Assembly: GCA_041500405.1 (NCBI GenBank) | Contig: JBGQMB010000004.1 | Location: 1 to 37,196 of the forward strand | Direction of reading: 5' to 3' | DNA from: Candidatus Micrarchaeia archaeon | GTDB taxonomy: Archaea; Micrarchaeota; Micrarchaeia; Anstonellales; J096 | DNA: 37,196 nucleotides | Shown: positions 1,988 to 14,016 of the stretch, piece by piece | How the letters are laid out: every line of letters starts with the position of its first letter | How positions within the stretch are numbered: the first letter of the stretch is position 1 | The notes under the pieces: generated by a model | Seen by the model: the letters and a program-made list of their open reading frames with translations, nothing else | The model's database searches: none | Told to the model about the DNA's origin: nothing | Translations under genes and position numbers: made by a program

Positions 1988-3086
1988 AAAAAGCGAGGAC
2001 CAGAAGGCCTACGACGGCCTTGTCTCCCTTGGAAAGGGCATGGTCACGGAAGTCAGGGGGGGCGCAACGCCAACGTTCGAGACCTCGCTAAGGGGCAGGT
2101 CCAACATCCTGTTCGACAAGGACGGATACCTGAAGCTCGGGGACAAGACCGAGACAAGGAAATTCATGAACCTCAGCCAGGCAAGGACGTTCATGCAGAC
2201 AATAAGCATAGCGAACAAGCTCAAGCAGTTCATAAGGCAGGGATTGCACACGTCCATCAGGGGCCTTTACTACCAATTGAAGTTTAGTTTGGGGGAGGAT
2301 TTGGACGAAAGCCTGTTTGAGGAGCAGAGCGAATCAAACGTCCTTGTGGAGGACCTTGAAGTTTCCATGGGCTCCAAAAGGGAGGACTTCCATCTGACGA
2401 CGGACAGGAAGGGCGTGCTTGCAGGAAACATAAAGCTCATAGACAGGTTCGGCGGGGAGGAAATAACCATAGACGGGACAAAGCAGGGAAGGAGCGGGTG
2501 GATGATACCGAGCGACGTTGACAACGGCATGGAGATAGAGAGCGTGAAGGCAGACTACGTTTTAGTCGTTGAAAAGGACGCGCTCTGGCAAAGGCTCAAC
2601 GAGGACAGGTTCTGGCAAAAGGAAAAGGCGATACTGATAACGCCAAAAGGCCAGAGCTCAAGGGGAACAAGGAGGCTGATAAGGAAGCTCGCGGACAAGG
2701 GGCTCCCTGTTTATGTTTTCACTGACTGCGACGCCTGGGGATGGTACATTTACTGGACCTTGAAGACAGGGTCCATGAACCTCGCATACCTTGGAAAGGA
2801 GTTCAGCATACCGGAGTCAAGGTTCATAGGCGTTACGATGAGCGACATAGAAAGATACGACTTCCTGAAAAAGCTCACAATAAACGCAAAGGAGCTGGAC
2901 ATCAAGAGGGCAAGGGAGATGATGGGCTATCCGTGGATAGCGAAGCACCCTGAGTGGGTGAAGGAGCTGAAAAAGGTCCTTGACACAAAGAAGAAGATAG
3001 AGCAGGACGCATTGCAGGGGCAAAGATTAACTTTCGTCAGCGAGTACGTCAAGGACAAGATAGAGAACAACGATATGCTGCCGTGA
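1968..3086 (+). CDS. top6A: DNA topoisomerase VI subunit A
   Basis: SIRGLYY (catalytic Tyr), Toprim VVEKDA, KGQSSRGTR, FTDCDAWG and KIEQDAL. Overlaps the 3' end of top6B; start ATG at 1968. Confidence 0.96.
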   Translation: MEKKKSEKSEDQKAYDGLVSLGKGMVTEVRGGATPTFETSLRGRSNILFDKDGYLKLGDKTETRKFMNLSQARTFMQTISIANKLKQFIRQGLHTSIRGLYYQLKFSLGEDLDESLFEEQSESNVLVEDLEVSMGSKREDFHLTTDRKGVLAGNIKLIDRFGGEEITIDGTKQGRSGWMIPSDVDNGMEIESVKADYVLVVEKDALWQRLNEDRFWQKEKAILITPKGQSSRGTRRLIRKLADKGLPVYVFTDCDAWGWYIYWTLKTGSMNLAYLGKEFSIPESRFIGVTMSDIERYDFLKKLTINAKELDIKRAREMMGYPWIAKHPEWVKELKKVLDTKKKIEQDALQGQRLTFVSEYVKDKIENNDMLP

Positions 3087-3142
3087 GCCATGGCAAAAGG
3101 GCCATGAAAGGCATTTAAAGGGTTCTGCGCAATATTATTCCA

Positions 3143-4414
3143 ATGGAAAAAAAGGAAGACATAGCCCAGATGCCATCGCACGCGCTCATAGAGCACGCCA
3201 GCCAGAGGCTTGAGCAGAATATAGGGCTAGGCGAGCTGAAGAGGCTCAGAAATGAGATGGTAAAGCGCGGGTTCATACATCCGTTTGCGCACATGGCAAG
3301 GATTCCGGGCGATGCGGAAAAAAGGGAAAAGGAGGACATAAGGAAGCAAATCGACTATTTCATGAAAATGGCGGTTTTGAAGAAATACACGCTTGTCAAG
3401 ACCCAGGCGCTGATAGCATCCTGGTCATTGAAAAAGTCGCTTGAAAGGAACGGATACACGGACCTGATGGCGCACATGCCGAAGAACGGCGACTATATCG
3501 GGGAGCTTATCCTCCACGGCAACGGAGCAATCCGCGCGTACAAGGAGCTTGACGAATATCTTTCCAAATCAGGCCATACTGAGGAAAGGCATTTTGTTGA
3601 GGTGGAAGAGCAGCTTGGCGCGACCTACAGGAAGAAGGGAAAAACAATGGCTGAGGCCATGGCCGGCATCCCGAAGGATGCGAAAATAAAAAGATCCGGA
3701 AAGATGAAAAAAAGGTTCCCGATAATCAAAAGCAAGATAATAAGGAAGCTGCTTTGCGCGTCGGTGGCGTGCTATGTCTCGGATTTGGCGGTGGAGCAGT
3801 TCAATACGGGAAAGATAAGGGATTACAACAAGGCATTGCTTGGCCTTGGCATAGCGCCGTTCAGCAGGCTGGACTATGCCGAGGGCTTTGACAATGAGAA
3901 AAAGGAGCTTGTGAAACAGGGATATATGGAAAGCGACGGGGAAACGTCCAAGACAAGAAAGGAATGGGTGGAGGAGATTTACAGGGCAAGGGACGGCATG
4001 AACACGTGGATGATGAGGAACGCCGCCGCGATGCTCTTTACCCCGATAATGAAATATTACCTGCTCAACAACAGGGCGCAAAGGGAGAAAAACCCGATAT
4101 TCCCTAGCCTGGCGCCCATGCCGAGCGAGGAGCAAACGGCCGTCTTCGTCTATCTGAGGGATTTGCTGGGCATGGATGTGTTCAGCGTCATAAAAAGGAA
4201 ACTCCAGTTCGAAAGCGTTATGCCCTCGGGAGAGCTGGCAGCAGGCCTTCTTGCCATATACGGGACAATGGAAAAGGCGTCCAAGATGACCGGCATGAAG
4301 GAAAGCGAAATAAGTGAGGCCGAAAGCCGGGTAAGGAAGATGATGGAGGGCGGAAAGGGCCATGAGTTCGCGGAATACCTTGGAAATAAGGGGAACAAGA
4401 AGCAGGATAAATGA
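3143..4414 (+). CDS. Conserved archaeal hypothetical protein, probably DUF530-like
   Basis: 423-aa ORF with host-like codon usage and an upstream TATA box. The N-terminal LKRLRNEMVKRGFIHPF and later KYYL...R...FPSL segments resemble DUF530 from memory; not verified. Confidence 0.55.
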   Translation: MEKKEDIAQMPSHALIEHASQRLEQNIGLGELKRLRNEMVKRGFIHPFAHMARIPGDAEKREKEDIRKQIDYFMKMAVLKKYTLVKTQALIASWSLKKSLERNGYTDLMAHMPKNGDYIGELILHGNGAIRAYKELDEYLSKSGHTEERHFVEVEEQLGATYRKKGKTMAEAMAGIPKDAKIKRSGKMKKRFPIIKSKIIRKLLCASVACYVSDLAVEQFNTGKIRDYNKALLGLGIAPFSRLDYAEGFDNEKKELVKQGYMESDGETSKTRKEWVEEIYRARDGMNTWMMRNAAAMLFTPIMKYYLLNNRAQREKNPIFPSLAPMPSEEQTAVFVYLRDLLGMDVFSVIKRKLQFESVMPSGELAAGLLAIYGTMEKASKMTGMKESEISEAESRVRKMMEGGKGHEFAEYLGNKGNKKQDK

Positions 4415-4742
4415 GCTGCTTGCCCATAATCCAGAGATTACGGACGCGCTGGTCTACGCCAAGCCGTCAAAAAGAATATTGTTCAGCATGCTCAACGCAT
4501 TCCCAAACCTGAAAAGGGTTGTTTTGGGAAAGGGCATAATGAGGCAGATGCCGAAAAGGCAGGTTGATGCGCTGGAAAAGGTCGGCATAGCGGTCATAGC
4601 TGAAACTAGGAAAAGGGGAAGGGCGCCCATGTTTTCAGAACAGCAAAAACAGGGAATAATCGCGGATTTCGCAAAGGACCGGTCGTCTGCAAAAAAACAC
4701 GGCGTGAGCGCACGGTCCGTGTACTATTGGATGAAAAAATGA
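4362..4742 (+). CDS. DUF1699-like protein with a C-terminal helix-turn-helix
   Basis: KPSKRILFSMLNAFPNLKRVVL...LEKVGI resembles DUF1699. The tail RGRAP...SAKKHGVSARSVYYWMKK is HTH-like. Confidence 0.55.
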   Translation: MSSRNTLEIRGTRSRINELLAHNPEITDALVYAKPSKRILFSMLNAFPNLKRVVLGKGIMRQMPKRQVDALEKVGIAVIAETRKRGRAPMFSEQQKQGIIADFAKDRSSAKKHGVSARSVYYWMKK

Positions 4743-4745
4743 AGG

Positions 4746-7115
4746 TCAGTTGAGCTGCGCGCCAGGCGCGTAAATCTTTATTTTCGCGTCCATGGCGTTG
4801 TAATATGAGGAGCTGGCGCAGCCGCCGCACTCGTCTATCGCGTCAATGTAGATGGAGAGCGTGTCCATGCCGTACTGTATCTTTCCGTAGCTGCCCTTGA
4901 CCTTGCTGTAGAACGTCACCGGGTCCATATTCGGCTGGCCGCACACGCCGTACTGGTTCTTGTAGTCGCCGTCGGAGTTGCAGCACAGGACGCGGCCCAT
5001 ATTGTTCATCTTTTTGCAGTCCCCTCCCTTGTCGACATTGGGCCTGAAGTCCCTCCAAAGCTCGAGGTATGTGTCGCTGCTTGTGCCGCCGTCGTCAAGG
5101 CTATAGCCGTAATAAAGCTCCGCAGTGAACGCAACTGTCAGCGCGTCAAGGAGGTTCTGGTTGTTCTCGTCGGAAAACGACGCAACCTTCAGGGTTTCGC
5201 TGTTGGCCGTGACTGCGGAATATGCCGCAGGCAGGAAATTCCATGCGATCTTGTACGATGCAGCGCATATGCTGTCCGCGGCCACGAACGGGTTGAACTT
5301 CTCGCCGCCGCATGCCTTCACCTCGGCCGGCATCGCAAGCCCGAGCGAGGCGTACATGCTGCCAGGCAAATCGGTCGTCTGCATCATGCCGCTTGCGCAT
5401 ACTGTGTATTTCTGGTTGTCGCTAGGCGGGTCCGCCATTGACGAGACGCTGCACCCCGCGGCTGTTGCGGCCGTGGAGATGTCGGACTTCTTTATTATTT
5501 TTCCTGTGCAAAGGCCTGCGCTTAATTCAGGAAGGTAAGATATGGTGCAAGGATTGAAATCAGACTCCTTCTGCGCAATCGCCTTCAGGAGGTTGGTGTC
5601 TATGTCATAAAGGTCTCCGTAAAAATTAATCCTGTTTGCCGCATCTTCAGGTTTCTCGCAGTTTGAGGCCCTGAATACGCCCTTTATGTTCTTTAGGAAT
5701 GCCGATATGTTCTTGGAGTCGTATATCATGAAGCACGCCCTGCACTCATAGGTCTGTTTCTCACTGTCCCCAAAATTTATTTCGGCAAGCGGGACATAGT
5801 CGCCCGTGCTCTGCGTTCCGGCATAGGACATCGTGTTTTCAGGGATGAAGTCAAGGACCCCGCACTTGCCGATTGAAGACGTGTCCATTGCAAAGACCTG
5901 GAAGTTCCTGCCGCCGTAATAGTTCTGGCAAAGCGAGAACCACGCGGACGCCGCGCTCTGCCTCAGCGACGTGCTGGAATCCACGAATGAATTGTTTTCC
6001 GCAGGGTAGAAGAACGCCTCCGAGTAGAACGGCTCTGATGACATGCCCATAAGGCCGTTCTTGGACATCTCCGGTATGTCGTTGAACATCAGCCAGAGAA
6101 GCTTCCTTTCCTCAAGGTCGCTCCACCTGCATGCGCTCCTGTTGAGATTGACATAATACCAGAACGTCGGCTTCCCGTATTTCGCCCTTATTGCGTTTGT
6201 GGCCAGCTGGGCCTGCGAAACAAGGTAGGATCCTGAGCCGCACTTTGAGTCCTCGTTTGAATCAATTAGATAGTCGCTGTCAATGCCGAATCCGACAAAA
6301 TCAACTTTGTCCAGCGCGTGGGATGCGCTGAGCGCGTCAAGGATGCGTGTGCCGTTCGGCCCGTTCCTTATTGACAGGCCGACCTTGCAGTTGGAGCATG
6401 CGGCGCTTATCCCCCTTATTTGGCTGGCTATATTCTCTATGTTTGTGTCGCTGGATTCTGGGTTCATCTCTGTCGCTATCATGACCGGCCCGAGACCGGA
6501 CATCTGGCGCGCGAAGCCTCCCGCATTGTCTTTTCCAGGCACGGTTCCGTTGTTGTAAAGTATGTAGAGCGGGATGACGCTTTTGTCAAGGAAGCACGCG
6601 GCGCCGGTATATGACTTCGAGGAAAATGTGTATTTCTCTGCGTCAAGCGAGCGGACAAGCTTGACCGCATAGCGAAGCGAGTTGTTGCAGTACGTGTTCG
6701 CATTGTTGAAGTCGGCGAATGTCATGCCCTGGCCTATGCCAAATTCGCGAATATAATATGTAGAATCGTTCAGGTTCTTGGCTATTTCAGCCTTGTTCTC
6801 AAAGGTCACGTTCTGGAGCCAGCAGTTCCCGCCGATGAGCGACGCGTCCATCCATTTCCAGTAGCGCACGCTGTAATACATGAACTGCGCCCAGTTCACA
6901 AATGATTTTCGCGAGGCGTTCTGGCACAGCATTATGCTGCAGTTTCCGGCGTTTGCGTATTCCGTCAGGTTTGTAGCGTTCATTTTCGCGCTGACGGCTG
7001 TGTGGCTGTCGCTGAGATATTGCGCTGTGCTGCTCTCTATCATATCGCTAAGGCACCCTGAAAGCAGCGCAATTGCCGCCAAAATCAAGACCGCGAAAAA
7101 CTTTCCTTTTCCCAT
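4746..7115 (-). CDS. Secreted lipoprotein (789 aa) with a glycoside-hydrolase-like barrel and a lytic transglycosylase (SLT/GH23-like) domain
   Basis: Start reassigned to ATG 7115 (SD-like AGGGGT upstream): MGKGKFFAVLILAAIALLSGC is a signal peptide plus lipobox. SLT motifs: YDIDTNLLKAIAQKESDFNP, ASGMMQ and FNPFVAADSICAASYKI. Cys-rich with many N-x-S/T sequons. Confidence 0.75.
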   Translation of the reverse strand: MGKGKFFAVLILAAIALLSGCLSDMIESSTAQYLSDSHTAVSAKMNATNLTEYANAGNCSIMLCQNASRKSFVNWAQFMYYSVRYWKWMDASLIGGNCWLQNVTFENKAEIAKNLNDSTYYIREFGIGQGMTFADFNNANTYCNNSLRYAVKLVRSLDAEKYTFSSKSYTGAACFLDKSVIPLYILYNNGTVPGKDNAGGFARQMSGLGPVMIATEMNPESSDTNIENIASQIRGISAACSNCKVGLSIRNGPNGTRILDALSASHALDKVDFVGFGIDSDYLIDSNEDSKCGSGSYLVSQAQLATNAIRAKYGKPTFWYYVNLNRSACRWSDLEERKLLWLMFNDIPEMSKNGLMGMSSEPFYSEAFFYPAENNSFVDSSTSLRQSAASAWFSLCQNYYGGRNFQVFAMDTSSIGKCGVLDFIPENTMSYAGTQSTGDYVPLAEINFGDSEKQTYECRACFMIYDSKNISAFLKNIKGVFRASNCEKPEDAANRINFYGDLYDIDTNLLKAIAQKESDFNPCTISYLPELSAGLCTGKIIKKSDISTAATAAGCSVSSMADPPSDNQKYTVCASGMMQTTDLPGSMYASLGLAMPAEVKACGGEKFNPFVAADSICAASYKIAWNFLPAAYSAVTANSETLKVASFSDENNQNLLDALTVAFTAELYYGYSLDDGGTSSDTYLELWRDFRPNVDKGGDCKKMNNMGRVLCCNSDGDYKNQYGVCGQPNMDPVTFYSKVKGSYGKIQYGMDTLSIYIDAIDECGGCASSSYYNAMDAKIKIYAPGAQLN

Positions 7116-7126
7116 GCAAAAACCCC

Positions 7127-10100
7127 TTACTTGTATTTCACCTTGCACTGCGGGCACGAGCCGGCCCCCCTCCTGATAAGCGCGCCGCAATAGCTGCATT
7201 TCATCATGTAGTTGGTGCCTCCGAGCGTGACCGCCGCCGCATTGAGCGGCGCGGAAAACCCTTCCGCGAAGAAGTCCGCGGTCGCACCGCCGAACTTCTT
7301 GGCCGCCCCCAGCCACCCTTCCTCTTGAACTGAGTCCCGTGCATTCATGTATAGGTTATTCAGGATCTTCTCCGTCTTGCCGGATATGACGTTGGTCGCT
7401 ATGAACGGGTTTATCATCGCGCCCATGAAGCTCTTTGACGGCGAATACATCTCCGCCTCCTGCTCCCTCTTGAAATAGTCTTCCACGATGTTGTTCTGCC
7501 TCTTCCTTATGCTGAGCGAGGCGTATGCCAGGTCTTCGGTGTCCGCCGTGCGCACGGAGCTTACCTTGGGCTCCTTGTATTCCCATTTGTACGTGTAGCT
7601 GCCCTGCTCCCCGCTCTTTTTCTGCTCCAGCTCCCTGGCCTCGTAGAGATTGTACACCTTCCACATCTCGCCCGGCTCGATTACGCGCTTGCCGGTTCCG
7701 AACATGTAATGCTCCCTGCCGGGTATGTCAGCCGGCGTCGCAAACTCGTTTGAGTACCAATAGAAGTGCGAGGACACCCTTTTCGCGCTATGGGTTTCCT
7801 CCTTGTCCGCTATCGCGCTCCCCTCGTTCGGGTTTACTGACGACATCCATTTGCCCACAGGGGCCATGAACTTCTTGAATGAATCCCACTTCTTTTCGCC
7901 GCCGGTCCTCTTCCAGGCGTCGAATCCCTCCGACGTTTCCGTGCCTGTCCAGAAGTTGGTCATTGCGCGGCTCCTGTCCCTTACCAGGTCGTTTGCGAAC
8001 TTCCCTGCATAGTAAACGCCGGGGATTGTGGCCAGGGCCGGGCCCCCGACAAGCGCGGCGATGCCCGCCAGGCCTACCTTTGAGCCTGAGCCTAGGTTGG
8101 CGAGCATTCCTGAAAGCGTGTATCCGATGTTGAGGCCCTGCTGGGGAAGGAATTGATCCATAGGGCCGCGTATTGTGCCCGGCTCCACGAATCTCCCATA
8201 CAGCATGGACCCCTCCTTATCGCGGTGGTGTATTGAATCAAGGCCCATGTCCTTGAACGCCCTTTTCACGTCGTCGTCAGCCTCGTACCTTATCTCATAT
8301 GGGTTGGCGACGCCCTTTGACATCTTCTCCTCAAAGCGGACTGCGTGCGCAAACGCCTGCTGCAAAGGCAGGTGCGCCCTTATCGTTTCGCGGGAAAGCC
8401 AGTCAAGCGCCCAATTCAGGCCCGAAGGATAGCTCTCTATGTTCTCCCTCCTGTATGCCTGCCACATCTGGTCTATCCAGGACTGCTTTAGCGTGGAAAC
8501 GCCTGCGTTTAGCGACGCCGCCGTAAGGCCCTCCCTGTAGTATGGATATGCCCCCCCATATATCGGATGCACATCCCTTGTCATGAACCACTCGAATGCG
8601 ATGAACGACTTCTGCAGGTCGCCCATCCTTAGCCTTATGAATTCCTCCGCGTCCTGCCTGGATTTGAATTGCTTCAGGAAGTCTATTTGGCTTTCGTCCG
8701 CCCCCCTTTCCATTCGTGCAAGTATTTTGTTGAGCGCCCCGTACTCGTCCAGCACAGCGAAGCCTTCCCTAAGTATCCTGTTCTCCTGGTTCTCTATGCC
8801 GAACAGGTCCTCGCTGCCTATCTGGAGCGTCTTCGTGTAAAGTACGGTCTCGTGGAATTTCGTGAACTTGTCTATGGCCTGCTCCTTGCCGTAAAGGAGC
8901 AGCCCTGAAAGCGCCTCTGCCGGGTTGCCGCTCCTGAACACGCCCTTCCAGGCTTCCATTCTCTGCTGGTCTATATCCGCAACCGTTCCGACCTTCACGT
9001 TGGCCATTCTGTTCAGCAGCGGCTCGAAGTCCCTTGTCTTCTCGGCATACCTGAATGCGGCTATCGCAACCTGCTGCGGGTCGGACACTGTTGTCCTCAG
9101 CCTTTCCAGGCCGGCCTTGAGCGCCTCTTTGTCCGCTCCGCCCGCCAGGTCTTTCATGAACTGGATTACGGACTTGTCTGTTATTCTGTATGTGTCCGCA
9201 AGCTCGCCCAGCGACTTGTATATGTTGCCGTGGTCGCCGATGTAGCTTATCCTCATGTTGAGGACCTTTTCGGTGCTGGCCCTTGCCATGTTCTGGAACG
9301 AAAGAGATGCTTTCTCCTTATCCCCAAGGTCCATGTTGGCGCCAACGAGCAGTTTTTTCAGGTCGCTGTTCATTGAGCTGGGATCCGCCCTCATCGGCAA
9401 TATGTCGCCGAGCTCGCCGTTCATGAACAGGAAGTCCTTGCTGCCCTTGACAGATTTGAGCGTGACCAGCCTGTTGTCCTGGTCCATCATGAAGTTGAAC
9501 ATCGCGGCGTCGAAGACGCGGCTGCGGTTGGCCTTTAAGTAGTCGCTGATTTCCTCTTTTGAGGCGGAGTATTCCTTGCCCTCCTTGGCGCTCCTGTCCT
9601 CGTCCTTCTTTCTGGCTATTATCTGCCTCCTGGCCTCGTCTTCCATCTCCTTGTCGGGCTTGAACTTGCCTCCGCTCATGATATAGTCAAGCATGTGGAT
9701 ATACCGCGTGCCGAACGTAAGCATGTTTTTGGACTGGAGCGTCGTTGACCTGTCGCTTATCAGCGTGAAGAGCCTGTCGTCGTTCTCGGCGCCCTTTCCG
9801 ACGAGCTGCGCCATGAGCGCGTTGGCCACGGACTCGCCGGTGCTTCCGGCTTTCTTGAACATGCCCTTTTCCCTCCTGTAGAACACATCCCAGAGGCCCA
9901 CGAACTTGAGCGTCTCCTCTGTCTCCCCAAGGTCCGAGAACCTCCTTGAGGTGGGGACAAATGATGTCTTTACAGCGAACGGGTCCTCGTCCTTGTCGTT
10001 TTTGTCATTTCTCAAGTATGCCCAGTGCCTGCCGTCAAGATAGGTGTGCGCAGTGTGCCTTGCGCCTGTCCCGAAGAGGTATGTCTTGACGTCATTCTTG

Positions 10101-12715
10101 AAAATGTCCTTGTATTTCTCCCCTAGCACGAAGTTGTTGACAAGATTGTCCTTCTGTGCCTGGCTTAAGGCCTGGCTTTTATCTATCTCCTTCTTGAGCG
10201 CCCTTGCGTTGAAGAACATCAGGTAGTTGTTGTCTTTCTCAAGGTACTTCAGCTCTTTCGGTATCTCTTTCCTGTTAATCATGTCCTTTGCGATTTTGTT
10301 GGCGAACGCCATCGCCACGGAAATGCTTTCCGCCATCTCGTTTATCTTGTCCTGCGGGATGAGGAAATTCTCCCTGTGGCCCTTCATCCACGGGAACATC
10401 TTCATCTTCTCCTTGGGCAGGTGCGAGACCGAAGACGCGTTTGCCCTTTCCAGTATCGCCTTTATGTCTTCCTTGCCTGAGGGAAGGAAGCCATACGTGT
10501 TGTTTATCTTCTCAAGATAGACCAGGCCAAACGCGTTGGAAAGGTTTGCCTTGCCCTTGTTGGACTTTGCAAGGCTGTAAAACATGTCCGCAAGCATGTT
10601 CTGGGAAGCGTCCTTTGATTCCATTATCTTGTCGTTGAAAACGGTCCTTCTGATGCCGCTTTTCGCCGCCAGTGAATCAAGCGCGCTGTTCAGCTTCCAG
10701 ACAACAAGGCCCTTCTTTATCGCGCTGTCCTTGAGTTCGCCTGAGCCGAGGCTGGCATATGCGCCATTTATGGCTTTACACCTTTCCATGAAATAATCGT
10801 ATTCCGCCCCTTTTCCCTTGAATATTTCCTTTGCGAGTTTTTTGTAATCGCTGTGTTTTTTCGCCAGCGTCATGCTGGACTCTTCCTTGTTTATTATCTC
10901 GGCTATACTCTGGAGCGTCCCGCTGTTTTGCTTGTCGAAATCTTTCATCTTCTTCAGAATGGACTGCAGCATCCCGACGTTGCCCGCGAGCTTCTTGAGG
11001 TTGGAGAGGTCGGCGCCCTTGAGCGCATTCAGCAGCGCCAGCTCGTCCCTGGTCATGCCCACGCTCTTGGCAAGCTTGCTGTCGTTTAGGATCTTGCCCA
11101 TCATGCCCTTAAGCAGTATCGCGGAGCTCTCCCTGTCGTACGCCTCCAGCATCCTGTCCGCGTTTCCGCCCTCGCGGAGCGAGACCTTGCCCGCGAAGCT
11201 GATGTCCATATTTCTCCTTAATTCGTTGCTCAGCCTGCCCATGACGTCGCCAAGGTCCTTGGCGCTGAGCCCAAGTATCTCCCTTGCCCACCTTTGCGCC
11301 CTTACGGATTCCTTCCATTTTCCGATATTCGGCAGGAAGGCGAAATATGTCGCAAAAATCGGCCTTATTATGTACTGCCCTCCGTTGAGCCTGCCGATAT
11401 ACTGGTTAAGCGGCTCGTGGAGCCTCCTGAAAATAGCCTCTGATGCGCCCGTGTCAGCCTTGACCTTTTCAAGCATCTTTTCAAAGGCGCCCACAGCCTT
11501 GTTTTCTGGGGCGATGGCCTTGGCGACCCTTGCGGCGTATTTCATGGGGTCCAATATGACAGCCATCAGGCTTCCCCTCTGCAGGCCGCCTATGACGCCC
11601 TTCACTATGCCGGCGTGCGGGCCGTACTGCGCCCTGACGTGGCTCTTTCCGTACTCCATTTTCTCCGCACCCATCCTGAACGTCTTCATCATCCTTAGGT
11701 ACTGATTTATGGAGTCCCTATCCTTTATGCCAAGCTTCAAGGAGATATGCTGTTGGAGGGGCCTGTATATGTCCAGCAGGGAGCTTTGGTAGGTAAGCCC
11801 ATTGCGCCTGAGGAACAGCTCCAGGTCTGCGCGCGTCATGCCGGCCAGCATCGCCACGCGCGCCAGGTTTCCGGCGTTCTTGTCCTTGAACGTGCCCGCC
11901 ACCTTTTCCATGTCCTTGCCGAGCTTGGTGTATTTCGTGATGTTCTTTATGGAGGCAATGATGGAGGTCGCGTCGCCGAACCTGCCGTGCCATCCGTATC
12001 CGCTCCACTTGAACCTCATCTGGTTGAGGTGGGGGAGCCTTGGCGAGGTGAAGTCAAAAAGGTAAAGCATGCCCTGGCCGCCCCTATAGTAGAACGCGCC
12101 GCCTATCAGCGCCATGAGTATGAGAATGGGTATGCAATATATGTTGTTTGATGGATTGGCAAGCTCCTGCAAAATTATGTTGCTTATCAGGGCAGGCGTC
12201 GCCTTTATGCCAAAGCAAACCTGCTCGGACTTCTCTGCAGTGGAATAGTCCCCTGGTGAGCTTGATTCCCCCCTGAATTCTGCCTTCAGCTCGGAGCAGG
12301 AATCCTTGTATTCGGAGCCGGGCTGGAAAGTGGCGATGCCGGAATACATCGTCCCTAGTGTTCCGTCCGAAAGCGTTACGGACGCTGGCGTGTCTGTTGT
12401 TCCGCTCCCAAGCAGCGTGAATTTGGAATCGCCAGATTTCTTTATGTAAAAATACACCTTGGCGTTTTGGAGCGAGGTCTGCTCGTATTGCCTTATGTTG
12501 AGCCCCGCTGTAGGGTCTGTCTTCATCCCGGTGTAATCATAATCTGACAGGGATTCTGTGTAAATGACTGAAAAGTTTACCTGTATATACGGCGCCCCGT
12601 TCTCTTCCCCAGTCGACGGGTACATGGATATTTCGGTTGTGGAGGCGGCGAATGCGATGGGCAGGGCTAGCAGCAGGGCTAAGATTATCCACAAACGCTT
12701 ACTAATTCCACCCAT
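7127..12715 (-). CDS. Giant membrane protein (1862 aa) with a signal peptide, TM helix and C-terminal zinc ribbon
   Basis: Start reassigned to ATG 12715 (TATA at about 12741-12750). Signal peptide MGGISKRLWIILALLLALPIAFA; TM IYCIPILILMALIGGAFYY; C-terminal CSYC-x9-CPQC. Confidence 0.85.
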   Translation of the reverse strand: MGGISKRLWIILALLLALPIAFAASTTEISMYPSTGEENGAPYIQVNFSVIYTESLSDYDYTGMKTDPTAGLNIRQYEQTSLQNAKVYFYIKKSGDSKFTLLGSGTTDTPASVTLSDGTLGTMYSGIATFQPGSEYKDSCSELKAEFRGESSSPGDYSTAEKSEQVCFGIKATPALISNIILQELANPSNNIYCIPILILMALIGGAFYYRGGQGMLYLFDFTSPRLPHLNQMRFKWSGYGWHGRFGDATSIIASIKNITKYTKLGKDMEKVAGTFKDKNAGNLARVAMLAGMTRADLELFLRRNGLTYQSSLLDIYRPLQQHISLKLGIKDRDSINQYLRMMKTFRMGAEKMEYGKSHVRAQYGPHAGIVKGVIGGLQRGSLMAVILDPMKYAARVAKAIAPENKAVGAFEKMLEKVKADTGASEAIFRRLHEPLNQYIGRLNGGQYIIRPIFATYFAFLPNIGKWKESVRAQRWAREILGLSAKDLGDVMGRLSNELRRNMDISFAGKVSLREGGNADRMLEAYDRESSAILLKGMMGKILNDSKLAKSVGMTRDELALLNALKGADLSNLKKLAGNVGMLQSILKKMKDFDKQNSGTLQSIAEIINKEESSMTLAKKHSDYKKLAKEIFKGKGAEYDYFMERCKAINGAYASLGSGELKDSAIKKGLVVWKLNSALDSLAAKSGIRRTVFNDKIMESKDASQNMLADMFYSLAKSNKGKANLSNAFGLVYLEKINNTYGFLPSGKEDIKAILERANASSVSHLPKEKMKMFPWMKGHRENFLIPQDKINEMAESISVAMAFANKIAKDMINRKEIPKELKYLEKDNNYLMFFNARALKKEIDKSQALSQAQKDNLVNNFVLGEKYKDIFKNDVKTYLFGTGARHTAHTYLDGRHWAYLRNDKNDKDEDPFAVKTSFVPTSRRFSDLGETEETLKFVGLWDVFYRREKGMFKKAGSTGESVANALMAQLVGKGAENDDRLFTLISDRSTTLQSKNMLTFGTRYIHMLDYIMSGGKFKPDKEMEDEARRQIIARKKDEDRSAKEGKEYSASKEEISDYLKANRSRVFDAAMFNFMMDQDNRLVTLKSVKGSKDFLFMNGELGDILPMRADPSSMNSDLKKLLVGANMDLGDKEKASLSFQNMARASTEKVLNMRISYIGDHGNIYKSLGELADTYRITDKSVIQFMKDLAGGADKEALKAGLERLRTTVSDPQQVAIAAFRYAEKTRDFEPLLNRMANVKVGTVADIDQQRMEAWKGVFRSGNPAEALSGLLLYGKEQAIDKFTKFHETVLYTKTLQIGSEDLFGIENQENRILREGFAVLDEYGALNKILARMERGADESQIDFLKQFKSRQDAEEFIRLRMGDLQKSFIAFEWFMTRDVHPIYGGAYPYYREGLTAASLNAGVSTLKQSWIDQMWQAYRRENIESYPSGLNWALDWLSRETIRAHLPLQQAFAHAVRFEEKMSKGVANPYEIRYEADDDVKRAFKDMGLDSIHHRDKEGSMLYGRFVEPGTIRGPMDQFLPQQGLNIGYTLSGMLANLGSGSKVGLAGIAALVGGPALATIPGVYYAGKFANDLVRDRSRAMTNFWTGTETSEGFDAWKRTGGEKKWDSFKKFMAPVGKWMSSVNPNEGSAIADKEETHSAKRVSSHFYWYSNEFATPADIPGREHYMFGTGKRVIEPGEMWKVYNLYEARELEQKKSGEQGSYTYKWEYKEPKVSSVRTADTEDLAYASLSIRKRQNNIVEDYFKREQEAEMYSPSKSFMGAMINPFIATNVISGKTEKILNNLYMNARDSVQEEGWLGAAKKFGGATADFFAEGFSAPLNAAAVTLGGTNYMMKCSYCGALIRRGAGSCPQCKVKYK

Positions 12716-12790: not shown

Positions 12791-12830
12791 AAAAACGTGG
12801 CCAAAGGAACGGCAATGCACCCATGTTTTT
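12791..12830 (-). terminator. Inverted repeat just downstream of the 12829..14016 gene; possible terminator
   Basis: Arms AAAAACGTGG (12791-12800) and CCATGTTTTT (12821-12830), followed on the minus strand by a T-rich run. Confidence 0.35.
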
Positions 12831-14016
12831 AATGCGGCCCGCTTCTTTTACTCGCCTCTTGTTGTTGTTCCCAGTATCCTTTTTCTAAACGTTTTTTCTT
12901 AATGCGCTCATACTGCTTTTGCGTGTCTTCATTCAGATATGGCAAAATCTCGCTCGGAAGGGAAGTTTCAGATGATGTCTCTTTGAAGAGGGTCCAATGG
13001 TCCCAAGTGTGGCATCTTTTTTGGCGTTTATCTAGTGCATTGAAAATCCTGTTTGGCATGTCTTTCAGCTTGTGCTCGAAAATCGTCAAACAGTCGTCCA
13101 GAAACCTGTAACGATACTTGCCAAGGCGATTCAGCGATATGGGAAGCTCAAAACTGAAAGTGTATGGAGATGCGGTTGCCCAAGCATGGGCGTATCTGTA
13201 TAGCTGTTCTTCGGTCATGTTTGCGACAATAGCCTGTGGTATGCCACTCTCCGAGGATTTTTTGAATCCCTCAATCCTGGCATCTATATAGTCATATAAT
13301 TCTGTTTGGGACATTTTGGCGCATACGACCTTTGGTGCATTTTTGCCGTTTTCTGCGGCATCAGCAATATATGCTGCGATTATTTTGTTTAAGCGTTTGG
13401 AGTCAAGCGGCTGGTCCAGCTCTCCCTCGACCAGCTTATCCCAATAAGGCGGCTTTGCGGTTCCAGAGGAGTTTAAATAATGGCCAAGCAGGCGCCCGCG
13501 TTCCTTGGTCCTTTCGTCTCCGGAAAGGCGATTGTATCTCCTGTATTCCGTGCTGCATTCTTGCGCCCAGCGCCTTTTCTCCTCCAAGTCCCTTTTTTCT
13601 TCCAATTCCCTTTTGGCTCTTTCATTCTCCGCGGCCCTGGCTCTTTCTTTTCTTTGCTCTTTGCGGCGCTTGGACAGTCTGCTGACTGCCCACAGGAGGA
13701 TGACTGTCATGATGATTCCACCGAGGAGCGTTTCGTTTTTGTCTTCCTTGCTTTTGCTGGCAGCTTTCTTCCTTGGTGAGGCAACAGAAGTATGGGTTTT
13801 GTGCCGGGAAACGTGCAATCTTTTCTGTACAGGTTTTTGCTTGATTAAATGTTGGTTATAAGAATTTTCTAAAAGAGGTTCATTGGCGAAAGCTGGCTTG
13901 ACGGCCCCGAAAGGCAGGGTCAAGGCGGCGGACGTGATGCCGATGCCAAGGATTGAATGAATGAGGCGCCTTGCCTTGCTTTTTTCATTTATCCAAATCC
14001 GCTGCATCTGCTCCAT
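12829..14016 (-). CDS. Hypothetical membrane protein (signal peptide, TM helix, coiled coil)
   Basis: 395-aa ORF. Hydrophobic N-terminus ending AFA, TM LLGGIIMTVILLWAVS, then a charged coiled coil (KRRKEQRKERARAAENERAKRELEEK). Visibly more AT-rich than its neighbours. Confidence 0.75.
   Translation of the reverse strand: MEQMQRIWINEKSKARRLIHSILGIGITSAALTLPFGAVKPAFANEPLLENSYNQHLIKQKPVQKRLHVSRHKTHTSVASPRKKAASKSKEDKNETLLGGIIMTVILLWAVSRLSKRRKEQRKERARAAENERAKRELEEKRDLEEKRRWAQECSTEYRRYNRLSGDERTKERGRLLGHYLNSSGTAKPPYWDKLVEGELDQPLDSKRLNKIIAAYIADAAENGKNAPKVVCAKMSQTELYDYIDARIEGFKKSSESGIPQAIVANMTEEQLYRYAHAWATASPYTFSFELPISLNRLGKYRYRFLDDCLTIFEHKLKDMPNRIFNALDKRQKRCHTWDHWTLFKETSSETSLPSEILPYLNEDTQKQYERIKKKRLEKGYWEQQQEASKRSGPH

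Follow-up and report, generated by a model that had tools for sequence, protein, structure and literature searches.

Large exported proteins with murein-like lytic transglycosylase (LT) domains have been described in Woesearchaeota and Pacearchaeota (fam00969), with earlier notes of such proteins in three DPANN genomes, according to the available text of that study (PMC8204110). As far as the accessible part of a second report goes, murein-like LT-domain proteins are also present in metagenome-assembled genomes (MAGs) from oxygen-deficient zones (PMC10936187). Similarly, the glycoside hydrolase family 23 (GH23) of Woesearchaeota from Lake A was given a predatory interpretation in the passages available (PMC9723730). 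Here we analysed a window of 37,196 nucleotides (nt), i.e. the whole stretch of DNA presented from contig JBGQMB010000004.1 of Candidatus Micrarchaeia archaeon (GCA_041500405.1), and studied in it a gene for a predicted lipoprotein of 789 amino acids (aa), in which a barrel resembling clan GH-A glycosidases is joined to an expanded, Cys-rich GH23/LT-like domain (Table 1). The protein shares with those of PMC8204110 and PMC9723730 the DPANN origin, the predicted export and the GH23/SLT domain, and the accessible text of these reports proposes the same idea of an attack on bacterial walls. However, the Woesearchaeota and Pacearchaeota proteins are up to 3,000 aa long and come from other phyla, whereas the protein studied here has 789 aa, a lipobox, a barrel, a separate giant gene beside it and named family members in Micrarchaeota only; the distinction is drawn from the published description of those proteins, as far as it was available.

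For Micrarchaeota themselves, the only mention of such enzymes that we found in the literature was at table level, in the accessible part of a study that lists an extracellular M23B (lysostaphin-like) peptidase for one Norongarragalinales MAG and GH23 among the extracellular carbohydrate-active enzymes of another (PMC8561730). This M23B peptidase is also a murein-type hydrolase domain in Micrarchaeota, but in the present family it is three relatives, and not the window protein, that have M23, added to the barrel scaffold as a further domain at the C terminus. The available main text of a comparative paper on Micrarchaeota does not mention peptidoglycan, murein, transglycosylase, lysozyme, M23 or cell wall (PMC12892359). 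No description of the barrel-GH23 family was found in the literature on Micrarchaeota, of which the supplementary tables could list such genes. An exported GH23 domain in a DPANN archaeon is already known. What appears new is the architecture of lipobox, GH-A-like barrel and expanded Cys-rich GH23 domain, as well as its near-universal presence in one large clade of Micrarchaeota, very small genomes included. The occasional addition of M23 and the conserved gene pair formed with a giant membrane protein appear new as well.

An earlier note, made from the letters of this DNA, had read the C-terminal half of the protein as an SLT/GH23 domain with three signature segments, a catalytic-type Glu and a Cys-rich insertion between the first two segments, and had asked for a check of the lysozyme-like fold. 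Models, fold searches and conservation supported this assignment. The segments were present at aa 509-518 (LLKAIAQKES), aa 574-579 (ASGMMQ) and aa 607-623 (FNPF...DSICAASYKI), the codon in question encodes Glu517, and the insertion holds four cysteines (Cys523, Cys536, Cys555 and Cys573) that are all conserved in the family. The model of aa 480-789, based on 85 aligned sequences, reached a pLDDT of 93.2 and a pTM of 0.88 and showed a lysozyme-like alpha+beta fold as in GH23/SLT enzymes. Its closest structures were murein LTs, followed by GH124, Tse3, a GH23 chitinase and GH19. In Foldseek the top matches were all LTs with a probability of up to 1.00, yet with E-values of at least 0.064, and in a viral fold library Muramidase/SLT entries led the list, but again with E-values of at least 0.067. 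The structural matches covered model residues 1 to ~290, so the Cys-rich 'tail' belongs to the same lysozyme-like fold, which is roughly twice its usual size. The motif-I helix (model residues 28-39) ends with Glu517-Ser518, just ahead of a small sheet, and GMMQ comes after strand 91-96, which is the usual layout of SLT domains. The canonical SLT motifs are of the GLMQ and AYNxG type (AYNxG for family 1); GMMQ and FNPF resemble them, with FNPF departing from the canonical form.

The support from sequence for the SLT assignment was borderline, whereas that from structure was clearer. Pfam SLT (PF01464) matched the 789-aa protein over aa 497-535 only (hmmscan, 20.3 bits, E-value 4.2e-4, cut-off 21.3), and in a six-frame search of its own genome the same family scored 23.3 bits at the window gene, above the cut-off. 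Matches to SLT at E<=0.01 were obtained for 15/56 family members, the best with an E-value of 8.4e-8. The family profile, when searched against the PDB, returned ten sequences at E<=10, nine being the GH23 lytic transglycosylases EtgA, MltC or MltE and one unrelated, and aligned the ES motif of the family to the catalytic ES of EtgA and MltC; the sequence likeness to MltE and MltC was confined to ~35 residues. A single-sequence phmmer search of the protein against the PDB gave no match, and the NCBIfam search gave sub-threshold noise only (LolB and IagB). The leads from the ESM Atlas were all below 0.9, with Muramidase at 0.84 and GH18 at 0.76.

The earlier note had made its proposal depend on the conservation of the Glu among homologues. 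Glu517 was kept in 106 of 131 representatives, the rest having Asp (5), other residues (12) or gaps (8), so that the proposal was not refuted on this ground. Conservation at the other key positions among the same representatives was in a similar range, with Ser518 in 104, Gly576 in 123, Gln579 in 103, Asn608 in 110, Pro609 in 122 and Tyr756 in 110. Tyr756 may be the counterpart of the Tyr in the catalytic site of LTs.

Compared with the E. coli enzymes MltE and MltC (GH23, 'family 1' LTs; PDB 4hjy and 4c5f), of which ~160 residues could be aligned, the archaeal domain is larger (~290 aa), has the 55-aa Cys-rich insertion and further expansions, carries FNPF as its third motif, is rich in potential disulfides and is fused to a GH-A-like barrel. 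EtgA was the best sequence-level PDB match to the family profile (E-value 0.018), and IagB was the weak NCBIfam match (E-value 0.052). EtgA, IagB and VirB1 are small 'wall opener' enzymes that are encoded beside a large envelope-spanning apparatus, whereas the domain described here is much larger, no secretion-system genes are near it and its neighbour is one giant protein. The gene is not within a secretion or pilus cluster, where LTs of that type are typically encoded; the genes around it encode the giant, a 395-aa protein, DUF530, TopoVI and primase.

The 'GH-like barrel' that the earlier note had placed at aa ~120-400 was found by model and fold searches to be a (beta/alpha)8 barrel. The model of aa 22-479 (95 sequences) had a pLDDT of 86.5 and an alternating strand/helix pattern, and Foldseek gave 475 matches at E<=1e-3, the best 50 of which were all clan GH-A-type barrels (GH53, GH39, GH2, GH128, GH10, GH5 and PslG). 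A GH18-type barrel, at which the Atlas had weakly hinted, was dropped as a candidate, as none was among the best 50 VIA or Foldseek matches. Glu216 is a Glu in 124/134 aligned rows and ends model strand 191-195, which is strand 4 by the order of DSSP (a numbering that is itself inferred), as expected for the acid/base of clan GH-A. Tyr184, Tyr187, Asp272, Lys315 and Tyr321 are conserved as well. However, the position of the strand-7 nucleophile, a Glu in clan GH-A, varies in the family (among 134 rows, D in 62, E in 13, S in 22 and N in 10), with Asn325 in this protein. We therefore regard the barrel as GH-like in fold, without classing it among the canonical retaining enzymes of clan GH-A. 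It also differs from clan GH-A glycosidases such as GH26, GH5, GH10, GH53, GH1 and GH128 in its many conserved cysteines and in the Pfam scan, where no family matched in the barrel half.

The N terminus was in line with the claim that the real start gives a lipobox signal. The full open reading frame (ORF) on the minus strand spans 4746-7316, and translation from the ATG at 7115 yields 789 aa with the N terminus MGKGKFFAVLILAAIALLSGC and a signal peptide ending in LSGC. It consists of a basic n-region, a single hydrophobic segment (aa 8-26) and the canonical lipobox L-S-G-C21, and agrees with the lipoprotein pattern of n-region and h-region followed by [LVI][ASTVI][GAS]C. Close homologues have the same kind of beginning, and G20 and C21 are conserved to at least 90% in the family. 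A hydrophobic run followed by [GA]C was found within the first 60 aa of 114/132 representatives of at least 600 aa (G-C in 110, A-C in 4), and the other 18 mostly appear to have a truncated N terminus or a wrongly called start. In relatives, position -2 of the lipobox is often the non-canonical F, P or Y. With 27 cysteines and 12 N-x-S/T sequons, the composition would fit an extracellular, disulfide-bonded and possibly glycosylated protein.

An exhaustive HMMER search recovered 164 representatives at E<=1e-3, including 143 at E<=1e-10, most of them 700-1,000 aa long. All named members are from Micrarchaeota (Anstonellales, Bilamarchaeaceae, Gugararchaeum), and all but the M23-bearing one are annotated as 'hypothetical protein'. 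The divergent GH23 domain thus escapes routine annotation, and murein hydrolases may for this reason be more frequent in archaea than surveys that call them rare have counted. When 163 stored proteins were searched with a profile of the GH23 region, 138 matched, among them 46 of the 52 that the single-sequence search had missed, so barrel plus GH23 is the standard architecture of the family. Further, stand-alone ORFs of ~350-440 aa that match only the GH23-like half of the family profile were observed in some relatives (G301:C1:112220-113143, G357:C1:95809-96897 and G157:C2:95562-96554). A word-based search for longer fused forms of the lipoprotein, which is weak evidence, gave none.

The family profile matched 165 of 401 sampled Micrarchaeota genomes (72 of 188 high-quality genomes). 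In the window's order the family was found in 16/16 genomes of f1, 28/30 of f2 and 76/76 of f6, and the small families f3-f11 were all positive. Elsewhere in the class it was present in f17 (6/6), f18 (3/3), f20 (7/7) and f29 (5/5), whereas f12 (0/94) and f13 (0/83) gave no match. It is usually single-copy, with one copy in the window's own genome, and is kept even in genomes of ~0.5-0.6 Mb. Three of the 52 relatives scanned carried a C-terminal Peptidase_M23 domain (P0059, P0064 and P0138; the three scores were 55.7, 58.0 and 33.6 bits, above the cut-off of 28.7). In P0064, M23 accompanies both the barrel and the GH23-like region, and Ser takes the place of the catalytic Glu.

The lipoprotein gene is paired with a gene for a giant protein, of which the TAA lies 11 nt ahead of the lipoprotein ATG (spacer GGGGTTTTTGC). 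The giant has a signal peptide and a transmembrane segment (aa ~192-210), is weakly hydrophobic at aa ~1547-1565 and carries a zinc ribbon (CxxC...CxxC) in its C-terminal part; apart from a weak assignment of this ribbon, Pfam, NCBIfam and Atlas searches assigned it to nothing. In 10 of the 14 loci read, the lipoprotein gene is directly preceded on the same strand by an ORF for a giant of 1,522-1,913 aa, likewise with a signal peptide. Two of the others lack it (L021 and L028), one ends at the contig edge (L023) and one is truncated (L001), where BLAST detected the C terminus of the giant. An iterated local search joined the giants of the read loci into one family, with E-values of 1e-32 to 1e-113 within that small set, and the alignment consensus has a conserved motif, roughly FDITTPRLP, after the transmembrane segment.

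The giant profile matched 164/401 Micrarchaeota genomes, and its pattern per family nearly mirrors that of the lipoprotein. Counts were the same or within one genome in f2 (29/30), f6 (76/76), f12 (0/94), f17 (6/6), f18 (3/3), f20 (7/7) and f29 (5/5), and differed in f1 (8/16), with weak matches in f14 (7/9) and f13 (2/83). In the 55 genomes for which both matches were listed on one contig, coordinates were compared by hand, and the giant match was upstream of the lipoprotein match, on the same strand and within 750 nt in 54 of them, the distance in the remaining one (G243) being 1,420 nt. Genomes of the window's family with a lipoprotein gene and no giant-profile match were G176, G289, G299, G313 and G379 (g6) and G080, G163 and G269 (g3). 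The genera g3 and g6, which account for the difference in f1, have the smallest genomes of this family (about 0.5-1.0 Mb) and mostly have no giant match. Six long ORFs in other genomes that were considered as fusions with the giant were barrel plus GH23 with insertions or over-called starts.

The earlier note's view of a small-genome archaeon was confirmed: the window's own genome has 916,473 bases, spread over 60 contigs, at a completeness of 86%. The window is archaeal, with genes for Topo VI A and B, for PriS/PriL, for RNase HII and for further housekeeping proteins. No match to Mur_ligase_M, AnmK, Glucosamine_iso, Amidase_2, Amidase_3 or Peptidase_M23 was obtained in this genome at its 86% completeness, while named control genomes gave matches in each of the murein-gene searches. 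The searches give no support to an organism that would make murein or pseudomurein or recycle muropeptides, which at this completeness is not proof of absence.

Taken by its domains, the lipoprotein would be exported by the Sec pathway and probably lipid-anchored via Cys21 of LSGC to the outer face of the archaeal membrane, where the 26 further cysteines probably form disulfides. The C-terminal domain, of LT or goose-lysozyme type, may use Glu517 as general acid on the beta-1,4 bond of a glycan of the N-acetylmuramic acid/N-acetylglucosamine (MurNAc/GlcNAc) type. The barrel, in which Glu216 on strand 4 is kept and the strand-7 nucleophile is not, more likely binds glycan or acts in a non-canonical way. 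The lipoprotein is probably made together with the giant membrane protein and would probably work beside it. As its target we tentatively put first bacterial murein, on a neighbouring cell and where the two cells touch, for attachment, wall opening or feeding, a proposal we consider quite possible though short of probable. The ranking rests on the M23 fusions, on the closest structures and on the own genome (86% complete), where no Mur ligase or murein-recycling gene was matched, which makes a foreign murein-type target the best guess. M23 enzymes are established to cut the peptide bridges of murein, as is also stated in the available part of PMC8561730, and the fusions are the best indirect pointer to a murein-type substrate.

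Several points weigh against this proposal. A lipid anchor would hold the enzyme on the surface of the cell that makes it. Cultured Micrarchaeota are known as partners of wall-less Thermoplasmatales. The barrel is without the canonical nucleophile, judged by alignment (Asn325; D or E in only 75 of 134 rows), and 25 of 131 representatives have no Glu at the catalytic position of the GH23 domain, so that a minority may be inactive. Finally, the gene is conserved beside TopoVI in the syntenic manner of a core gene, which would agree as well with a housekeeping role directed at the cell itself. The earlier note had gone straight to a wall- or glycan-cutting enzyme aimed at another cell. The M23 fusions, the search of the own genome in which no Mur ligase was found and the murein-LT structures speak for the aim that it gave to the enzyme, which stays an inference; none of them speaks specifically to pseudomurein or S-layer glycan, which the note had also named. 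The near-universal, syntenic and single-copy conservation would suit a housekeeping role on the own envelope just as well.

Such a self-directed enzyme would act on the archaeon's own envelope and trim or open a GlcNAc-containing polymer or glycan layer there, resembling a bacterial 'space-maker' LT, e.g. for assembly of the giant or another surface structure or for division. We regard this as unlikely, although it is the most serious of the alternatives. It would account for a family that is near-universal and usually single-copy in the window's order, for the conserved housekeeping neighbourhood with DUF530 and TopoVI A/B, for the tight coupling to the giant and for a lipid anchor that holds the enzyme at the own surface. 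However, no Mur ligase was found in the 86%-complete genome, which thus gives no indication of stem-peptide synthesis for murein or pseudomurein, the relatives with M23 suggest as substrate a peptide-cross-linked glycan that this organism apparently does not make, and no archaeal self-polymer is known to be cleaved by GH23.

A nutritional depolymerase, digesting environmental GlcNAc polymers (chitin, murein debris or exopolysaccharide) in sediment for a cell with limited biosynthesis, seems to us improbable. Two glycan-type domains within one exported protein would suit it, and the DNA is present in sediment metagenomes, where five runs hold at least half of its sampled words (three of these may be its source); relatives from the same phylum are described with substantial metabolism in the accessible text of PMC12892359. 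Yet AnmK, glucosamine-6-P isomerase and muramoyl amidases were not matched in the own genome, as far as its 86% completeness allows, a lipid-tethered enzyme would reach insoluble polymers poorly, and a simple feeding enzyme would not be expected to be encoded so consistently beside a giant membrane protein. A mainly adhesive role, in which one or both domains have lost catalysis and serve as a glycan-binding anchor to a partner cell, is very doubtful: the barrel without a canonical nucleophile, the non-catalytic GH128 binding protein 6ubd among the top barrel matches and the relatives lacking the catalytic Glu would agree with it, but this protein and most relatives keep Glu517 together with Ser518, GxxQ and Tyr756, the pattern expected under selection for catalysis.

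Returning to the murein of a bacterial partner as target, a bolder version would take the giant and the barrel-GH23 lipoprotein as a conserved two-gene contact apparatus, by which a whole order of Micrarchaeota, as cross-domain episymbionts or predators, would attach to bacterial hosts and breach their murein with exchangeable cutting heads (GH23, M23). We think this rather unlikely in its full extent; if true, it would set these archaea apart from the Micrarchaeota known on wall-less archaea. For most Micrarchaeota, neither host nor lifestyle is known, and a conserved, surface-exposed and muralytic-looking family would offer a molecular handle on the host question, which is strengthened by its retention in genomes of about half a megabase and by its nearly constant giant partner. 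The substrate of the lipoprotein would tell whether the partners are bacteria.

Table 1. Position of the lipoprotein gene, its encoded features and the neighbouring genes in the window.
Feature	Position	Strand	Basis or remark
Barrel-GH23 lipoprotein gene, 789 aa	4746..7115	(-)	Stop codon 4746-4748; homologues found
Signal peptide and lipobox, aa 1-21, MGKGK-FFAVLILAAIALL-SGC, Cys21	7053..7115	(-)	Sequence, hydrophobicity, family conservation
(beta/alpha)8 barrel, clan GH-A-like, aa ~94-442	5790..6836	(-)	Model, fold searches
Glu216 codon, conserved carboxylate ending the fourth barrel strand, candidate acid/base	6468..6470	(-)	Conservation, DSSP
Expanded Cys-rich GH23/LT-like domain, aa 480-789	4749..5678	(-)	Structural match aa ~480-770
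Glu517 codon, catalytic-type Glu of the ES motif	5565..5567	(-)	Family-profile alignment, conservation, model
Cys-rich insertion between motifs I and II, aa 519-573	5397..5561	(-)	
GMMQ, aa 576-579, equivalent of the GLMQ motif	5379..5390	(-)	Conservation
FNPF, aa 607-610, third SLT motif in the form typical of the family	5286..5297	(-)	Conservation
Tyr756 codon, Tyr conserved on the final long helix of the lysozyme-like fold	4848..4850	(-)	Conservation
Giant protein, 1,862 aa from MGGISK, probably co-transcribed with the lipoprotein gene	7127..12715	(-)	ORF listed to GTG at 12820
395-aa membrane protein, opening the run of genes on this strand	12829..14016	(-)	8 nt to the giant ORF GTG at 12820; ~113 nt to the MGGISK start at 12715
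DUF530 protein	3143..4414	(+)	Convergent with the lipoprotein gene
126-aa protein, weak HTH_Tnp_1-like end	4362..4742	(+)	Overlaps the DUF530 gene; ends 3 nt from the lipoprotein stop codon

The order of the 126-aa gene, DUF530 and then Topo VI A/B beside the lipoprotein gene is kept across several families. There was no sign of a viral origin, the neighbourhood being housekeeping and syntenic. A terminator-like hairpin at 4756-4772 was rejected, as such hairpins were no commoner than in shuffled sequence. Among the sequencing runs listed as containing the lipoprotein gene there was no RNA data set. The 395-aa protein gave no relatives in the other loci examined and no family match; it has two hydrophobic segments and a highly charged stretch rich in Lys, Glu and Arg.

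Additionally, a second SLT-like ORF was observed in the own genome, on contig C11 of G000 (L016:4912-5883, plus strand). It encodes 323 aa without a signal peptide, scored 21.7 bits with Pfam SLT against the cut-off of 21.3 and has the motifs QETRG...GIMQ. It was rejected as a close paralogue of the window's domain (BLASTP E-value 5.9), and it adjoins two ankyrin-repeat proteins on the minus strand (L016:4213-4818 and 2793-4262).

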